The position numbers and the translations under genes are program-made. Shown here in pieces: positions 46,002-53,236 of a stretch of 64,000 nt of DNA. The DNA comes from an uncultured Planctomycetaceae bacterium (lineage in GTDB: Bacteria; Planctomycetota; Planctomycetia; Planctomycetales; Planctomycetaceae). The notes under the pieces were generated by a model, which ran no database searches, was not told the DNA's origin, and saw nothing but the letters and a program-made list of their open reading frames with translations. Location of the stretch: positions 1,056,001 through 1,120,000 of the forward strand of contig CAWFAK010000017.1 of NCBI GenBank assembly GCA_963813715.1. The letters run 5' to 3'. Every line of letters begins with the position of its first letter. The first letter of the stretch is position 1.

Positions 46002-46099
46002 GCCGCCGGTTTCTACGACCGTTCTGATCGGCCGCCGAACGCGTCGCACACGATCAGGCGTTCGACGCGTGTTATCATGTGGGTCGAGGAGAACGGCCC

Positions 46100-47812
46100 A
46101 TGACCGCGATCGAACATCGTCCCGACGTCGCCGCTTTACCCGCGCCGGATGAAGAGCCGCAAAGCCCCTTCGACACGCACCGCGTCGAGAATCAGCCGCC
46201 CGCGCTGGAGAACTACAACGTATTCACGAGCGACGTCGCGCTGCGCGAGGCCGTCTCCCGTGAAGGGGGCGCCTGGGGCTTCGACCGCCTGACTCGCTTC
46301 GGCGACGCGATCGGGAGTGCGCAGGTCATCGCTTGGGGCTTTCAGGCCAATCGGAATCCGCCCGTGCTGCGGACGCACGATCGCTTCGGCCACCGCATCG
46401 ACGAGGTCGAGTTTCATCCGGCCTGGCACGAGTTGATGAAAATTGGGGTCGAGCACGAAACGCATGCGCTCGCCTGGCGTACGCCGAAAAACGGGGCGCA
46501 CGTCGTGCGGTCCGCCCTCGGCTTCCTGCAATATCAGCAGGAAGCAGGCGTTGGCTGTCCGCTCACGATGACCTTCGCCGCTGTCCCCGCGTTGCGGAAA
46601 GAGCCGGAGCTGGCCGCCGAATGGTTGCCACGAATTACGTCGAATGTCTACGACCCCCGGTTCATTCCGGCTGCCGAGAAAAAGGGCGCGCTCATCGGCA
46701 TGGCGATGACGGAAAAACAAGGCGGTTCGGACGTCCGCTCGAATACGACCCAGGCCCGACCGCAGGGGCACGACGGGTCAGGAAGCGAATATCTGCTCAC
46801 CGGACACAAATGGTTCTGTTCGGCGCCGATGAACGACGCCTTCCTCACGCTGGCCCAGACCGACCGTGGCCTGACCTGTTTCTTCGTCCCGCGCTGGCGG
46901 CCGGACGGGCACCGCAACGCGTTTGCCATCCAGCGGCTCAAGGACAAGCTCGGAAACCGCTCCAACGCATCGAGCGAGATCGAATATCGCGACACGTGGG
47001 CGCAACGAGTGGGCGAAGAAGGCCGCGGTGTCCCCACGATCATCGAAATGGTGAATCACACGCGGCTCGATTGCGTGGCCGGCTCGGCCGCCTTGATGCG
47101 GCAAGCACTGGCCCAGGCCATTCATCACGCGACTTACCGGCGGGCCTTCGGCAAACGCCTGATCGAGCAGCCGGCCATGCAAAATGTGCTGGCCGATCTG
47201 GCGCTCGAGTCGGAAGCGGCCACCTCCCTGATGACGCGGCTGGCGCGGGCGTACGACCGCGCAGCGACTGATGAGCAGGAACGGGCCTTCGCGCGGATCG
47301 CCACGGCCGTCGGCAAGTTCTGGGTCTGCAAACGCTGCCCGCCCGTGGTCGGCGAAGCCCTCGAATGTCTCGGCGGCAACGGCTACGTCGAGGAATCGAT
47401 CCTGCCGCGGCTTTATCGCGAGGCGCCGCTGAACTCCATCTGGGAGGGTTCGGGCAACGTCATGTGTCTCGACGTGTTGCGGGCCATCCAGAGAGAGCCG
47501 CAGTCGCTCGCGGCCCTGCAAGGCGAGCTGGAATCCGTCAGGGGGATGGACACGCATTACGATCGGCTTTTGGAGCGACTGAAACGGGAACTCACGTCGC
47601 CCGACGAGATGGAAAATCGGGCGCGTCAAATCGTCGAGCTGCTGGCCGTCGCGCTTGAGGCCGCGGTCCTGCTCCGCGCCTGCGTCCCGGCGGTCACCGA
47701 AGCCTTTCTTGCCACACGCGTCGCTCGCGGCGGCGGGCAAATCTACGGCACGCTGCCCAGCGGCACGAACTGTCTCGCCATCCTCGAGCGGGCGCGGCCG
47801 GTGCTGAATTGA
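46100..47812 (+). CDS. aidB: AidB-family acyl-CoA dehydrogenase
   Basis: THRVENQ, RIDEVEFHPAWH, CPLTMT, GMAMTEKQGGSDV, GHKWFCSAP, RLKDKLGNRSNAS, IWEGSGN. Confidence 0.85.
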   Translation: MTAIEHRPDVAALPAPDEEPQSPFDTHRVENQPPALENYNVFTSDVALREAVSREGGAWGFDRLTRFGDAIGSAQVIAWGFQANRNPPVLRTHDRFGHRIDEVEFHPAWHELMKIGVEHETHALAWRTPKNGAHVVRSALGFLQYQQEAGVGCPLTMTFAAVPALRKEPELAAEWLPRITSNVYDPRFIPAAEKKGALIGMAMTEKQGGSDVRSNTTQARPQGHDGSGSEYLLTGHKWFCSAPMNDAFLTLAQTDRGLTCFFVPRWRPDGHRNAFAIQRLKDKLGNRSNASSEIEYRDTWAQRVGEEGRGVPTIIEMVNHTRLDCVAGSAALMRQALAQAIHHATYRRAFGKRLIEQPAMQNVLADLALESEAATSLMTRLARAYDRAATDEQERAFARIATAVGKFWVCKRCPPVVGEALECLGGNGYVEESILPRLYREAPLNSIWEGSGNVMCLDVLRAIQREPQSLAALQGELESVRGMDTHYDRLLERLKRELTSPDEMENRARQIVELLAVALEAAVLLRACVPAVTEAFLATRVARGGGQIYGTLPSGTNCLAILERARPVLN

Positions 47813-47883: not shown

Positions 47884-48327
47884 ATGAATAAAGCGTTCGT
47901 CCGCGATCCGGAACCGACCATCGAACGCTGCCCGCGCTGTGGAGCGGCTGGCCAGCCGGTCGGCAGCGTGATTTTGGACGCCTTCGTGCGTCCCGAGTCG
48001 CGCAATCAGCTCGGGGCGGAGGCCTGCTTTTGTCCTACGGCCACGTGTCCCGTAGCCTATTTCGATGCGTTTGATCGGCTGGTCGAAGTCCTGCAGCTCG
48101 CCCGACCCGTTTATCCGAAGGACCCCGAGGCGCCGATCTGTGGCTGCTTCGGTTTTACCTGTGCCGAGATCGACGAGGACCTGCGCGAAGGAGTCGCAAC
48201 ACGAACGCGGGCCCAGCTCGAGCGAGCGCGATCCTCTGACGCCCGCTGCTCGCAGGCGGCGGCCAGCGGGGCCTCCTGCGTGGCCTCGGTCCAGAGCTAC
48301 TTCATGCAACATCGCAGCCGCGACTAG
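47884..48327 (+). CDS. Cys-rich metal-binding protein (CopZ zinc-binding / BFD-like 2Fe-2S type)
   Basis: CPRC, FCPTATCPVAYF, PICGCFG, later C...C. Confidence 0.7.
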   Translation: MNKAFVRDPEPTIERCPRCGAAGQPVGSVILDAFVRPESRNQLGAEACFCPTATCPVAYFDAFDRLVEVLQLARPVYPKDPEAPICGCFGFTCAEIDEDLREGVATRTRAQLERARSSDARCSQAAASGASCVASVQSYFMQHRSRD

Positions 48328-48370: not shown

Positions 48371-49098
48371 TTAAGCCTTCGCCAAGGCACGGTGCGTCCC
48401 GTGCTCTCTCGTCACGCGCATGCTCAGAAAGATCCACGGTCCGGGCCCAAGGATCGAAAGACGAAAATACCGCGTGCTTTGCAGTTTCAGGCCGAGGGCC
48501 GGGAAGTATTCGGAGTAAGTGTAGATTTTGTGCAAAGCGCACAGCCCCAACATCCAATGGGAAACGTTTGCAACGGTGTAATAGAGCCAATGCCGGAACC
48601 GCAGCACGATGTTCCCGCGCGGCGAGGCAAAGTCTGCGATGACGAGATCTCCCCCGGGACGGACCAGCGAAACGAGCCGAGTCAGCATTCGTAACATCGC
48701 GGGTCGCGAGAAGATGTTCAGGAAGAAGTTCGATACCACGACATCAAACGGTTCGTCCGCCTCGAATTCCATGATGTCGGCGCAGACGAATTCCCCCGGC
48801 AAATCGGCCGCCTCGAACCGCTGACGGACGATTTCGATCATGCTGGGTGACAAGTCGACGCAGGTCACCTCGACACCACGACGCACGGCCTCGAGCGCTT
48901 CCTCGCCCGGTCCGACGCCGACGTAGAGGACCCGCTGCCCGGCGGCATATCCTCGATCTGGGACAGCCGGGTGGCCAGATTCTGCCCGCCGGTACACAAG
49001 GCGGTCAGCCGTTCGTAGATCGGGGAAATCGATTCGTAACTGCGGGCAATTTGTTCGCCCGACGAATGTGGCTTCGCCTGGACCTGAGCGGCCATCAC
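48371..49098 (-). CDS. Class I SAM-dependent methyltransferase; frameshift near 48945
   Basis: RVLYVGVGPG, CVDLSPSM, FDVVVSNFFL, VRPGGDLVIADF; N-terminus in ORF 48865..49098. Confidence 0.8.
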
Positions 49099-49160
49099 GC
49101 GTCCCCCCCGGAGTTGTCCTCGGCCTCAACTGAGGCTCACTAGGCCTGATGAAAAGGTAA

Positions 49161-50393
49161 TCAGCACATGCCCACATCGACCGCAGCAAGGTCCGCGACA
49201 GGGGGGAGCGTCGCGGTGGGGTCGTCAGTGTTCGGTTGCACTTCATCGCGAGGATAAAGCAGTGGACGGGGAGGAAAGATCGACGAGAATCCGGCCTTGA
49301 GAACCGCCCGCATCGTCCAGCGGCCACCCTTGACGAAAATCGACAACGGCACCTGGTAGCAGCCGAGCTTGTCGTGCTTGAGCGCGTCGGTTGTCTGACC
49401 GATGCAAATCTCTTGCGCACCGTGCCGAAATGCGGTGTCGATCGATTGATACAAGAGGTTGAAATAGACCTCCGCTTCGGCGTTCACCTCGTAGTCGACT
49501 CCCAGCACCATTCCATGGAACGTCGTCTCGGAGACAAGCGAGAGGGAGAAGCCGACGATTTCCTCGCCGCGATAGATCAACGTGAAGACCGTGTTGTCGG
49601 GCATCCGTCGGGCCAACTCCCGAGGAAACTCGAGAGGCAATTGCTCGAATTGAACGTCGGAACGGTCAGCGACCGCCTTGTACAATTTGTGAACCGCGTC
49701 CGTGTAAACATCCGCAACTCCGTCGCGACCGTACAGCTCGACAACCCGCAACCCGTTTTCCGGGAGCCTTTTTTGCGACCGGCGGATCGGCCGGCGTTTC
49801 TTCGACGGAAATCGGGACAGGTAGTCGGCGAAGTCGCGCGATCCGGGCTCGACGCGGTTCATCGGGAAACTATCGGCACGGCGGTAACCGAGCGACTCCA
49901 GTGGCTCCAGGTCCGAGCAGCCTGCTTCATCGATTTCTTTGAAGAGAATCAGGCGGGCCCACTCGCGCCGCGCGAATTGACACGCCACCCGATCGAGGCA
50001 TCGCAGCACGGCCGCGCGATCGGCCTCGGGCGTGAAGCGAACGTGGCTTTGTCCGGCCGAAACAGGCAGGCCGCACAAGATCAACTTGCTGCGGAACAGC
50101 CACGGCGCCACACGTTCCAGGCCAGCCACGACTTTCTGCACGCGGCCCTTCGCCAAGGAGGCGCCGCCGATGCTGTAGGAACTTAGACAGGCAATTGCCA
50201 TGGGCCGACGTCGGCCATCTCGCACGATGACGTGCCGAAAGCGGCACGCCTTGGCAAACCCGATCTCGACGGCTTCGATGAAGCGCGGATCCATGAACGG
50301 ATCGCTCGCCGCGTCCCGGAGGCTGTTCCATTCGCCCGGGTCCACGCGGCCGATCGAATCGTAGACCTCAAATTGATAGTCAGCGCTGTCCAT
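49161..50393 (-). CDS. FemAB-like tandem GNAT-fold protein
   Basis: DSIGRVDPGEWN, FADYLSRF...RRPIRR, IVGFSL, GVDYE, YFNLLY, GQTTDALK. Confidence 0.75.
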   Translation of the reverse strand: MDSADYQFEVYDSIGRVDPGEWNSLRDAASDPFMDPRFIEAVEIGFAKACRFRHVIVRDGRRRPMAIACLSSYSIGGASLAKGRVQKVVAGLERVAPWLFRSKLILCGLPVSAGQSHVRFTPEADRAAVLRCLDRVACQFARREWARLILFKEIDEAGCSDLEPLESLGYRRADSFPMNRVEPGSRDFADYLSRFPSKKRRPIRRSQKRLPENGLRVVELYGRDGVADVYTDAVHKLYKAVADRSDVQFEQLPLEFPRELARRMPDNTVFTLIYRGEEIVGFSLSLVSETTFHGMVLGVDYEVNAEAEVYFNLLYQSIDTAFRHGAQEICIGQTTDALKHDKLGCYQVPLSIFVKGGRWTMRAVLKAGFSSIFPPRPLLYPRDEVQPNTDDPTATLPPVADLAAVDVGMC

Positions 50394-50471: not shown

Positions 50472-51896
50472 TCAATGAACTTCTGATCCGGCGACGACGT
50501 GAGACGGATCTCGCCTCTTGCGAACGCCGTCCGTCGGACTCTGCGAGATCTCCGCCGGCTGAGGCCCGGTCAGAGGCGACCGCGGGTGAGCGGCAAGATG
50601 TGCGCGCTCTCGACGCTTGAAATGCTTCTGGATGAGACTCAAACACGTTCGCTTCAAGCTGAAGTCCAGCATGCCGCTCATGCGGACCAACGCCAACCCA
50701 GTGAGCAAGGTCGTGCCGGGAAGGGCACAGATGTAACGCCCCTCATAACGTGGACGGAAACGACTCTTGAAATGGTAAATGCCTGCGAAGTCGAACAGGA
50801 AGTTCAGATACTTCAGACCGATGGTGAACGCGTGACGCGTCATGGCGCTATCGCCCTTGAGCGGTTGTTCACAACCAACCGCGGGAACGAGGCAAAGTGA
50901 AACCGCCTCGATCCCTTCGGACTTCATCCGCGTCATCGCCACATGAAAGAGATGGGGAACGACACCGCGGACGGCATCGCTGCGGTGACGATACATCTCG
51001 AACGACCAGTGCATACCGTTTCGGCTCGGAAGGGCGATCAGAAACCCCTCGATGCGTTTGGGAGAATCGCCGGAGTAGGCAACGAACAGGCGTCGACGAC
51101 CCCAGCCATTCTCATCGAGCTGACCTTCGAGCAGCCGGATTGCGCCGGCGTGAGATTTGGTCGCCAGATGCTCGTCGGAAACCGCGCGTAAGTCTTTGAT
51201 GAGCGACGTCCACGCGGCATCATCCATGTCTTCGCGACGATGTTCGATGACGCTGATGCCCGCCCGACGGCAGTAGTTGGTTTGGCGACGCACCCACTCG
51301 AACTGCTTGCCGGACCAGGTGCAGGTTTGCAGGTCGACGTACGGTTCTTCACCCCATTTCGTCACTTGAAAGCCATGCTCGCGAAACAGAGGGGCGTCTT
51401 CCTCGGTTACGTTGAAACAAGTGACGAGCAGCCGGTGCGAACGGGCGAAGGCGACGAACTCGCGCAACAACTGCGGCTTATCTTCATCGCGTGCGAGAAG
51501 TCCCCCGATGACCTTCACATACCGGCCCAGCCGCCGATACGACACGAGGCCGCGGCGATCTGTCGACCAGAATCGTTTCCATCCGCTTTCGGTCGCGAAG
51601 TACGAATCGTAGACGGCTCCGCAAGTGAAAGCCTGATGCTCGACTCGCAGCCATCGATTCGATTCCAGGCTCTCTTGCGGCCGAGTCAGAATCGTCTGAT
51701 CGCAATCGGATGCGGGCTCGTCTTCCGTCGCGACCCGTTCGCTCCTAATCGTTCCATTCGTTGGCTCGAGCAACGTGTCGAGTTGGGGATCGGAATCCGA
51801 CAGCGCGTTGCCGCTCGTGCGGGAGCGCCAAACCTGGACAGCCCAGGAGCGTTGACCGTTCAGATAGTTGTGGGTTGAAGTCACCGTGTCCGTCAT
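50472..51896 (-). CDS. Stand-alone DUF2156 / MprF C-terminal-like (aminoacyl-tRNA-dependent transferase) domain protein; start uncertain
   Basis: TKWGEEPYVDL, WSGKQFEWVRR, VSDEHL, RRLFVA, FEMYRH, FDFAGIYHFKSRFRP; no N-terminal TM flippase. Confidence 0.8.
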   Translation of the reverse strand: MTDTVTSTHNYLNGQRSWAVQVWRSRTSGNALSDSDPQLDTLLEPTNGTIRSERVATEDEPASDCDQTILTRPQESLESNRWLRVEHQAFTCGAVYDSYFATESGWKRFWSTDRRGLVSYRRLGRYVKVIGGLLARDEDKPQLLREFVAFARSHRLLVTCFNVTEEDAPLFREHGFQVTKWGEEPYVDLQTCTWSGKQFEWVRRQTNYCRRAGISVIEHRREDMDDAAWTSLIKDLRAVSDEHLATKSHAGAIRLLEGQLDENGWGRRRLFVAYSGDSPKRIEGFLIALPSRNGMHWSFEMYRHRSDAVRGVVPHLFHVAMTRMKSEGIEAVSLCLVPAVGCEQPLKGDSAMTRHAFTIGLKYLNFLFDFAGIYHFKSRFRPRYEGRYICALPGTTLLTGLALVRMSGMLDFSLKRTCLSLIQKHFKRRERAHLAAHPRSPLTGPQPAEISQSPTDGVRKRRDPSHVVAGSEVH

Positions 51897-52590
51897 CCCC
51901 TCTCCAACTGACGTCGGATGGCGGCAGGCTGTAATCCGCCTGCCCCCGTCCGCTTCGCGGATTCAATCGGCCCATCAATCCGTGAAAGGGGCGCGACGGT
52001 GAGAACAAAACGAGCTGGAATGAACCTGGCCAGCTTCCATTGAACGGAGCGAAGAGCTCCAAGAAGAGCGATTCGCGAGGAGCCGTTGTCCCCCCGCGCC
52101 CCGCTTTGGAAACGCCTCACGGGGCGATCGCCCCGGAAAGGCAAAAATGCGGCAAACTCGCATCAGACCGAATTGCGATTGGACATTTCTCCAGCGCGTG
52201 TAGGTCCCGAAATAGACCTTCTGCGCCTCGCCGCGTTTACGAGAGGACTCTGGTCCGCTCGAGGGGGCCTGCAGGAGCCCGACGCGGCTTGAGAAACCTT
52301 CGCCGTCGAAGCGATCGTGGCTGGAAGTCACCGTGTCGGTCATCCCCTTCTCGAACCGATGTCGGTGGCTGCAAGATGACTCCCATCTGCTGCCGTCCGA
52401 TTAGCCGCGGATTTGATCGGCCCATCAATCCGTAGAAGGGGCGCGACGGTGCGAACTCAAAGGTTGGAAAGACTTTTGCCAGCGTCGTTTGGGTGCAGTG
52501 CGGATCGCCGGGAAAAGCGACTCGACAGGAGCAGTCCGTGTCGGTGGAGCCTCCGATGCCCAGCGACGGCTCTACGTCCGAAAAGGCAAC
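51877..52590 (-). repeat. Tandem diverged duplication (period about 446 bp) of a structured leader plus first codons
   Basis: 51877-52010 aligns with 52324-52461 (GAAGTCACCGTGTC.GTCATCCCC; ATCGGCCCATCAATCCGT; AAGGGGCGCGACGGTG); weaker similarity extends to CCGGAAAGGCAA / CCGAAAAGGCAA. Confidence 0.9.
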
Positions 52591-52840
52591 TCATTCAACC
52601 GACTTTATTCAGAACCTGTAATCGAAGTCAAGGACGCAGTTTACGTGATCAGAAAATCCTAACATCAGGTCTCGAATCGACCTTGATGCTCCGGCATGTT
52701 GCGAAAAAGCATTTCGCGATGGGGCCGAGTCGCAACGTCTCCGCGCGAACCTTCCTCGATCGGCCACCTCGATTAGCCGAAACTGGCTTTGGTTCCGGCT
52801 GCGTGCTAACGTAGCGTCCCTCGACCGACCGGAGTTTTCG

Positions 52841-53236
52841 ATGTCCGAGACAAGCCAAAATGGTCCCGACTTCTCCAAGGCGGACCTCATTCCCGTCATC
52901 GCGCAGGACGACGCCTCGGGCGACGTTCTGATGCTGGCGTACATGAACGAGACGGCCTGGAAGGAAACGCTCGCCACGGGACGAGTCTGCTATTACAGCC
53001 GCAGCCGGCAAAAGCTCTGGCGCAAGGGCGAAGAAAGCGGCAACGTCCAGGAGGTCAAAAGCATCTTCTACGACTGCGATGCCGACACCATCCTGATCCG
53101 CGTCAATCAGATCGGCGGTGCTGCATGTCACGAAGGTTACAAGAGCTGCTTCTTCCGCAAACTTGACCCGCAGACGGGTCGCGTCGAGGTGATCGGCAGT
53201 CGTCTGTTTGATCCGAAGGCCGTCTACAAGAAGTAA
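52841..53236 (+). CDS. hisI: Phosphoribosyl-AMP cyclohydrolase
   Basis: [41 protein letters not shown]. Confidence 0.95.

Follow-up and report, generated by a model that had tools for sequence, protein, structure and literature searches.

The stretch of DNA analysed here, hereafter the window, comprises 64,000 nucleotides (nt) of contig CAWFAK010000017.1 from an uncultured Planctomycetaceae bacterium. On its minus strand lie two copies of an RNA element of about 130 nt (~51878-52005 and ~52325-52455, offset 447-450 nt), each predicted to fold over the Shine-Dalgarno (SD) tract and start codon of a gene of the DUF2156 family. An initial annotation, made from the letters alone, had taken the pair for a translational riboswitch or thermosensor present twice in the leader of one operon. 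Our analysis points to a different arrangement, in which the proximal copy heads an intact gene (gene B) and the distal copy heads the relic of a second, largely deleted DUF2156 gene (gene A). We tentatively propose, with a rough probability of 0.45, that each copy is a lock, which opens when a ribosome reaches it from the upstream reading frame. The locus is laid out as follows, in the direction of minus-strand transcription and with the divergent neighbour last.

52602-52631, minus strand: candidate sigma-70-type promoter, TTGACT-N18-TAAAGT, the sole promoter-like site predicted within 51700-52900.
52457-52594, minus strand: near-leaderless, putatively translated upstream open reading frame 1 (uORF1), 45 codons starting MSCLF, with its stop 8 nt ahead of the 5' strand of the distal element.
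52325-52455, minus strand: distal element copy, heading gene A, placed by fold, z-score, conservation and motif coordinates.
Parts of the distal copy, minus strand: P0 5' strand 52446-52451, anti-SD strand 52436-52444, P2 5' strand 52423-52431, P2 3' strand 52354-52361, purine tract 52344-52348, AUG 52341-52343, GUG 52329-52331.
51975-52343, minus strand: gene A relic of 122 amino acids (aa), an in-frame deletion of a second DUF2156 gene, with the junction near 52240 and the stop within the proximal element.
51878-52005, minus strand: proximal element copy, heading gene B, placed by a covariance model score of 130 bits, fold and z-score.
Parts of the proximal copy, minus strand: P0 5' strand 51996-52001, anti-SD strand 51986-51994, P2 5' strand 51973-51981, P2 3' strand 51906-51913, purine tract 51897-51901, AUG 51894-51896, GUG 51882-51884.
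50472-51896, minus strand: gene B, a stand-alone DUF2156 / LPG_synthase_C protein (PF09924, E 1e-40, residues 98-391) with an N-terminal MTDTVT...DSDPQ module.
49161-50393, minus strand: FemAB-like / GNAT protein (PF04339, E 8e-18; PF13480, E 6e-15), the next gene of the likely operon, its order kept in relatives.
48371-49120, minus strand: S-adenosylmethionine (SAM)-dependent methyltransferase (PF13649, E 9e-19), third gene of the likely operon, its start codon uncertain and its order kept in relatives.
52841-53236, plus strand: hisI (PF01502), with hisG behind it; this divergent neighbour identifies the locus by synteny in relatives.

FemAB-like proteins are aminoacyl-tRNA transferases. The same activity is given for DUF2156 proteins in the accessible part of a published study (PMC9437257). 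Among six species, identity is 82-96% in the promoter region and 53-83% in the adjacent spacer. Contigs from an RNA library cover the region thinly and evenly, intergenic stretch included; as assembled contigs they are uninformative on transcription or its ends.

All the motifs that the initial annotation listed for both copies are found on the minus strand, and the duplication it described is borne out: the local alignment of core to core scores 171, against 40.5±5.2 for shuffled sequences (0 of 500 as high). The upstream flanks of the two copies are also homologous, weakly over about 170 nt (101 vs 47±6, 0 of 500 shuffles), and the downstream flanks are not (46 vs 44, with 180 of 500 shuffles as high).

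A consensus fold was derived from 11 distinct copies, and ten copies were folded individually. The predicted structure is nested. Its outermost helix, P0, pairs CACCGU with ACGGUG and thereby buries a GUG; P1, the anti-SD helix, pairs GCCCCUU with the purine tract; P2 pairs GGAUUGAUG with CAUCRGUUC. P2 leads into a three-way junction whose other two branches are a short P3 and the P4/P5 arm; the junction is stacked on P1 and P0. Together P0, P1 and P2 make a near-continuous helix of about 23 base pairs (bp), broken by internal loops. Consensus pairing is kept in 94.8% of cells, and P2 is 98% paired. The pairing of the 5' segment with the purine tract, already suggested in the initial annotation, occurs in the minimum-energy fold of both window copies, and the CCCCUU/purine-tract pairing has a probability of 0.90-1.0 in each of the ten copies folded. 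Two further structures in that annotation fare less well. Its CGGAUU/AAUCCG hairpin is absent from both minimum-energy folds, is paired in 84.8% of cells with no two-sided change, and retains just 3-4 of 6 pairs in three single-copy species. Its mutually exclusive CCGUC/GACGG fold is paired in 78.2%, keeps 2-3 of 5 pairs in five copies and likewise has no two-sided change.

Compared with shuffled sequences, the window copies have folding z-scores of -3.7 and -4.4; values between -3.2 and -4.4 are obtained for eight of the ten copies, the other two being those of the relative G010 (-0.3 and -1.4). Compared with its complement, the mRNA strand has the better folding energy in 4/4 copies and the better z-score in 3/4. 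In 12 distant species pairs the core is 0.83-0.90 identical, as against 0.39-0.57 at the four-fold sites of gene B and 0.53-0.69 in the spacer on the hisI side. Variable positions are concentrated outside the helices (27/78 paired vs 33/44 unpaired columns; Fisher p 2.6e-5), and in eight of nine copies the fold is more stable than that of 97% or more of random mutants carrying as many changes, two tests that use a structure derived from the same sequences. Half of the alleles at paired columns keep pairing (15/30 vs 10.3 expected; p 0.03). Taken together, these comparisons suggest that the element is under selection on structure. Ten of the 44 unpaired columns are invariant, including G42 and A65 at the junction; several of the ten are part of the SD or the start region, or take part in alternative pairing registers.

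The distribution of the element is narrow. Neither blastn nor a covariance model finds a third copy in the source genome. Within the genus it is present in 7 of 12 genomes, four with two copies and three with one; the remaining five (65-96% complete) have gene B homologues, with no element found in the flanks taken. Among 150 genomes of the family, the covariance model gives true matches (129-166 bits) in three, all within the genus, and weak matches in 16, none above 23.6 bits. Inspection of 16 of 17 weak places, and of one weak match in the source genome, revealed no operon gene nearby and no core motif. The same model gives one true match among 89 loci. Exact-pattern scans, which are blind to diverged relatives, returned true loci in 6 of 18 metagenome matches and 6 of 44 matches in species genomes; all 12 sit at a DUF2156 gene, and the genome matches are Planctomycetaceae. 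Other orders and phyla were covered by these patterns and by 24 genomes of the same class. Within the searches made, the sequence matches place the element at one locus of one clade. A dispersed repeat or miniature mobile element was considered and rejected, there being only two copies in the genome and a DUF2156 gene at every true locus.

Rfam 15 yields no match in the window at the gathering score. Relaxing the threshold to E 10 adds two weak matches (16.8 and 13.5 bits), both off the cores, and four relative loci give none at E up to 5. The statement in the initial annotation that no known riboswitch class is recognised thus stands for the cores. We found no description of the element, or of a DUF2156 leader RNA, in the accessible parts of the literature searched, which was mainly open-access. 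The element is a real, uncatalogued structured leader of narrow distribution.

Which codon the element controls is less simple than the conserved AUG of the initial annotation, as AUG is replaced by ACG in 4 of 11 copies; the GGUGA 12 nt downstream is invariant. In the window copies, the best pairing with the 3' tail of the genome's 16S rRNA spans the purine tract and the UGA of AUG (-14.4 and -11.1 kcal/mol) and would thus position a ribosome to start at the GUG, about 10 nt downstream, a spacing that is long for the source genome (peak 6-9 nt). A GGAG located 5 nt before the AUG of the proximal copy also fits as an SD, and most module-bearing proteins are called from the methionine of AUG. 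AUG and GUG are therefore both candidate starts, and in the predicted fold both fall within the locked region. Opening the interval from SD to start would cost 20.7 and 24.7 kcal/mol in the two window copies, values that rank among the highest 10% and 3.5% for 200 control genes; a narrower interval around GUG alone is ordinary (11.0 and 8.2).

A TGA within each copy overlaps an invariant ATG in P2 as TGATG (52237-52425 and 51969-51975 onward, minus strand). An out-of-frame open reading frame (ORF) starts at this ATG; it is 14-76 aa long, extends across the SD and start codon in 10 of 11 copies, and by its sequence may allow re-initiation through the element.

The two copies in the window are explained by a related locus. 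At the metagenome locus L081 another DUF2156 gene, gene A, about 25% identical to gene B, ends immediately before the proximal copy, and the 122-aa ORF between the window copies matches the 3' end of that gene. A search for full-length gene A returned proteins that start with MTDTV and end in ...HRRAPFTD or ...HRRAPSMD. Approximately the first 36 residues of the window's ORF match the N-terminus of one of these, the intact 491-aa protein P0125, and residues 35-122 (88 residues) match P0125 residues 404-491 with 82% identity, the two parts being joined in frame. By this comparison the 122-aa ORF is an in-frame deletion relic of gene A, and each copy therefore heads its own gene. Ancestrally, accordingly, the promoter and leader were followed by one element with gene A and then by a second with gene B. 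Gene A has been hollowed out in the source genome and in the relatives G007 and G010, with different leftover pieces. The tandem, then, is a deletion relic and not two switches in one leader, as the initial annotation had it; a single copy is present in three of the seven genomes with the element. The source genome's other type-A DUF2156 gene (L143:5787-6900; G000:C17 ~410800-411900, minus strand) has no element and is apparently split over several frames.

The 3' end of gene A extends towards the proximal element. Most type-A DUF2156 proteins (70/75) end 0-9 residues past the C-terminal cysteine, exactly three in 65 cases; the other five have 38-58 extra C-terminal residues. Of these tailed proteins, four have the MTDTV start (the fifth has no intact N-terminus) and three have the C-terminus ...HRRAP..D, their stop being the TGA within the proximal element. 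In 3/3 lineages the relics are open up to or into the element, with 5 of 6 alternative frames closed, a count that excludes the stop overlapping GUG itself.

The MTDTVT...DSDPQ module, encoded from the 3' end of the element onwards, occurs in 22 of the 120 gene B clusters listed. On a quick tree, with one row left out, these clusters form one clade, and the two-copy lineages lie within a subclade of 14 rows. Protein P0026, compared with P0129 and P0133, combines a catalytic domain of the gene B type with a type-A-like N-terminus. This mosaic suggests that the two DUF2156 types have exchanged N-terminal modules on more than one occasion.

We propose that the element acts as a translation-coupling lock. 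Folded over the SD tract and start codon of a DUF2156 gene, it would be opened by a ribosome translating the frame just upstream, so that translation of each gene would be coupled to that of the preceding one. The relay would run from the promoter through the near-leaderless uORF1, the distal lock, gene A (here a relic), the proximal lock and gene B to the GNAT and methyltransferase genes, with both uORF1 and the relic presumably translated. As both DUF2156 and FemAB-like proteins act as aminoacyl-tRNA transferases, tying their synthesis to ongoing translation would be a plausible purpose.

The start of the relay rests on uORF1. Its ATG is 7 nt after the -10 box in 6/6 species, its length is 45-56 codons, and its TGA stop, 8 nt before the distal element, is shared by six of seven genomes, the seventh having its stop within the element; no conservation is seen in the peptide. 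In the source genome a TAnnnT box is found exactly 6 nt before the ATG in 26 of 1086 crudely called genes, against 1-13 at other spacings, and because of this peak leaderless translation probably occurs there. The spacing of 7 rather than 6 nt suggests a 1-nt leader on uORF1.

In the four copies with an upstream ORF that enters the element, a modelled ribosome footprint at the best position cuts the opening cost to 9-11 kcal/mol, from naked costs of 14.3, 19.2, 14.1 and 13.6, which by a rough comparison is near the median of ordinary genes (10.4). The upstream ORF overlaps the inhibitory strand in the window's proximal copy, in three of the five tailed gene A proteins and in 4 of 10 modelled copies; in the other 6 of 10 it ends 8-20 nt short of the 5' strand. 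Coupling is better supported for the proximal than for the distal copy.

Precedents for coupling by RNA unfolding include E. coli rpmI-rplT (with a spacing of +52 nt), phage MS2 coat-lysis and phage f1 VII-IX, as given in the accessible text of PMC12548453. Like the element in its predicted fold, these have a downstream ribosome site silenced by structure and, as in some of its copies, an upstream ORF that enters the inhibitory strand, far enough away for a second ribosome to load. In contrast, the element forms a self-contained module of 130 nt with a three-way junction, which was duplicated together with about 45 N-terminal codons in front of two different paralogues; its stop-to-start distances are 78-125 nt, the ORF often stops short of the anti-SD helix (6/10 modelled copies), and its coupling is a computational prediction. 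A second parallel is Ms5788A, a leaderless short-ORF translational attenuator of mycobacteria described, with the ermCL and cat leaders cited beside it, in the part of 10.1101/834739 that was accessible. In both systems a short ORF starts at or beside the predicted transcription start, and downstream of it the SD of the first gene is sequestered in a duplex. Unlike that attenuator, as far as this part of the source describes it, uORF1 has no conserved run of sensing codons (a single cysteine, at codon 3) and no conserved peptide, and in the model no ribosome position along uORF1 frees the site in five of six distal copies.

Several points weigh against the lock. A footprint at the stop leaves the site closed in the six copies whose ORF stops at -28 or -40 (naked to footprint: 21.1 to 21.5, 16.2 to 15.1, 16.8 to 15.3, 20.4 to 23.0, 16.0 to 14.1 and 22.5 to 22.2), among them the window's distal copy and the three single-copy species. 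Even in the window's proximal copy a ribosome at the stop gives 13.4, compared with 14.3 naked, the value of 9.9 being that of a ribosome in transit. Stop positions vary (-40, -28, +4 and +50, with about -52 in P0123 as estimated from length), and the joint chance of such open frames in GC-rich DNA is 0.16 for uORF1 and 0.07 for the relics. The stop-to-start distances exceed those of the cited precedents, and coupling weakens with distance according to the accessible text of the same source (PMC12548453). The uORF1 spacing of 7 nt is off the leaderless peak (26 genes at 6 nt vs 5), and the tail of gene A may be mere read-through into duplicated leader DNA. On the side of the RNA, covariation of the consensus fold does not exceed that of shuffles (79 to 323 of 500 reach the observed value), with two two-sided changes in the whole fold and neither in the anti-SD helix, where the initial annotation had seen compensating changes; 11 close sequences give this test low power. 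The shared origin of fold and structure tests counts here too. Stability is lost in the distal copy of G010 (L146:3636-3785; z -0.3), in which the AUG is also lost and uORF1 enters the element; this copy may represent a natural unlocked state. Finally, a simple lock needs neither 85% sequence conservation nor a three-way junction.

The best placed of the other explanations, in our view still an unlikely one, is a trans-acting opener: the anti-SD strand would be lost through cleavage of the RNase III type within the P0-P1-P2 stem, or else a protein or small RNA would bind at the junction or the 5' strand. The stem is long enough to suggest it, and such a factor would explain conservation beyond pairing and serve both copies whatever the upstream stops. 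Activation of occluded ribosome sites by RNase III is documented for E. coli adhE and lambda cIII in the accessible part of PMC5371410, where a long stem likewise occludes the ribosome site. As far as that part goes, the predicted stem here differs in being branched and interrupted by internal loops. A trans factor would also leave the gene A tails that end in the element unexplained.

Next in standing, and also unlikely, comes a new lineage-restricted riboswitch, in which a metabolite or ion bound at the three-way junction would either stabilise the SD helix or free it. The element is in a 5' leader downstream of a predicted promoter, includes the SD and start codon, and is strongly conserved in sequence around the junction directly above the anti-SD helix, where G42 and A65 are among the ten invariant unpaired columns. 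Since the uORF1 footprint fails to open the distal copy, that copy may require a different trigger. The closest known relative in architecture would be the SMK box (SAM-III), an SD-sequestering translational riboswitch with a three-way junction; there too the anti-SD:SD helix is directly under the junction, and the operon here encodes a SAM-dependent enzyme. Unlike the SMK box, the element has no Rfam match at E 10, its unpaired positions mostly vary (33/44, several of the invariant ones being accounted for by the SD, start region or alternative registers), the alternative helix of the initial annotation is not conserved, and the element belongs to one locus of one clade. Forced-open folds differ among five copies and cost 10-20 kcal/mol, and the 10-25 kcal/mol needed for opening is a lot for a single small ligand to supply.

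A more speculative extension, which we regard as improbable, combines coupling and sensing. Near-leaderless uORF, three-way-junction RNA and about 45 N-terminal codons would form a portable cassette grafted onto two unrelated DUF2156 paralogues. At its junction the cassette would itself respond to a signal, whether pH, a small ligand or the supply of aminoacyl-tRNA, and passing ribosomes would add a second input. If so, it would represent a riboswitch-like class of a new kind, connected in series through coupling and controlling tRNA-dependent aminoacylation of lipids or metabolites.

Somewhat less probable than the riboswitch is a constitutive, unswitched dampener or stabiliser that keeps translation low or protects the mRNA, its second copy a by-product of duplication that is partly homogenised by gene conversion. 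The deletion of gene A would account for the tandem layout, structured GC-rich leaders are common in the genome (2.5-4.5% of controls fold as well), and ribosome standby can override structure, according to the accessible part of PMC5934652. One private base is shared by both G010 copies and another by both G007 copies (alignment A3, columns 21 and 32), two such columns against none in six cross-species control pairs, a weak hint of gene conversion in the sequences. Conversion cannot, however, yield orthologous conservation, and the opening cost is within the top 3.5-10% of genes. The distal copy, moreover, is still conserved in three lineages where it heads only a relic, apart from its decay in G010. 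An RNA thermometer, the second option of the initial annotation, would suit an SD paired through several G-U pairs in a 5' leader but is very improbable, because in the nearest-neighbour model the site is predicted closed from 10 to 75 °C (the purine tract has an unpaired probability of 0.00 at 10-55 °C in the two window copies; at 75 °C it does not exceed 0.11 in 4/5 copies, the fifth, decayed copy being non-monotonic).

Six narrower candidates were rejected. Readthrough of the uORF1 UGA to AUGA/GUGA overlaps has an open frame in only 3/6 species. A prfB-like +1 frameshift at CUU UGA is absent in G007, out of frame in G010 and has no upstream SD. An arrest peptide of the RAPP/RAGP type does not match the sequence, which is RAP-F/S/C, or RAL in one species. 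Selenocysteine readthrough of the TGA inside the element would meet further in-frame stops in the window. A sigma-54 site at TGGC...TTGC has a spacing off by one and is not conserved. A hammerhead-like core is missing key positions and has no Rfam match.

If coupling is correct, the lock moves as a module between paralogues, and a dead gene is kept open as a track for ribosome delivery, in a phylum for which the accessible parts of the literature searched turned up little on translational control. The locus also illustrates how a gene deletion can mimic a tandem riboswitch. The reach of these statements is that of a computational study of one locus in one clade.

Some neighbouring features were noted in passing. 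A protein with a zf_CopZ domain (47884-48327, plus strand) and an AidB-type acyl-CoA dehydrogenase (46079-47812, plus strand) converge on the end of the operon. Upstream of hisI, at 52750-52825, blocks such as CAAAGCCAGTTT are conserved in six species and are probably part of the hisI promoter or leader. At locus L032 (G020:C448) a more distant gene B homologue follows an apparent acyl-carrier-protein gene and a ligase gene, as read from the upstream DNA, a neighbourhood hinting at a role of stand-alone DUF2156 proteins in carrier-based biosynthesis.

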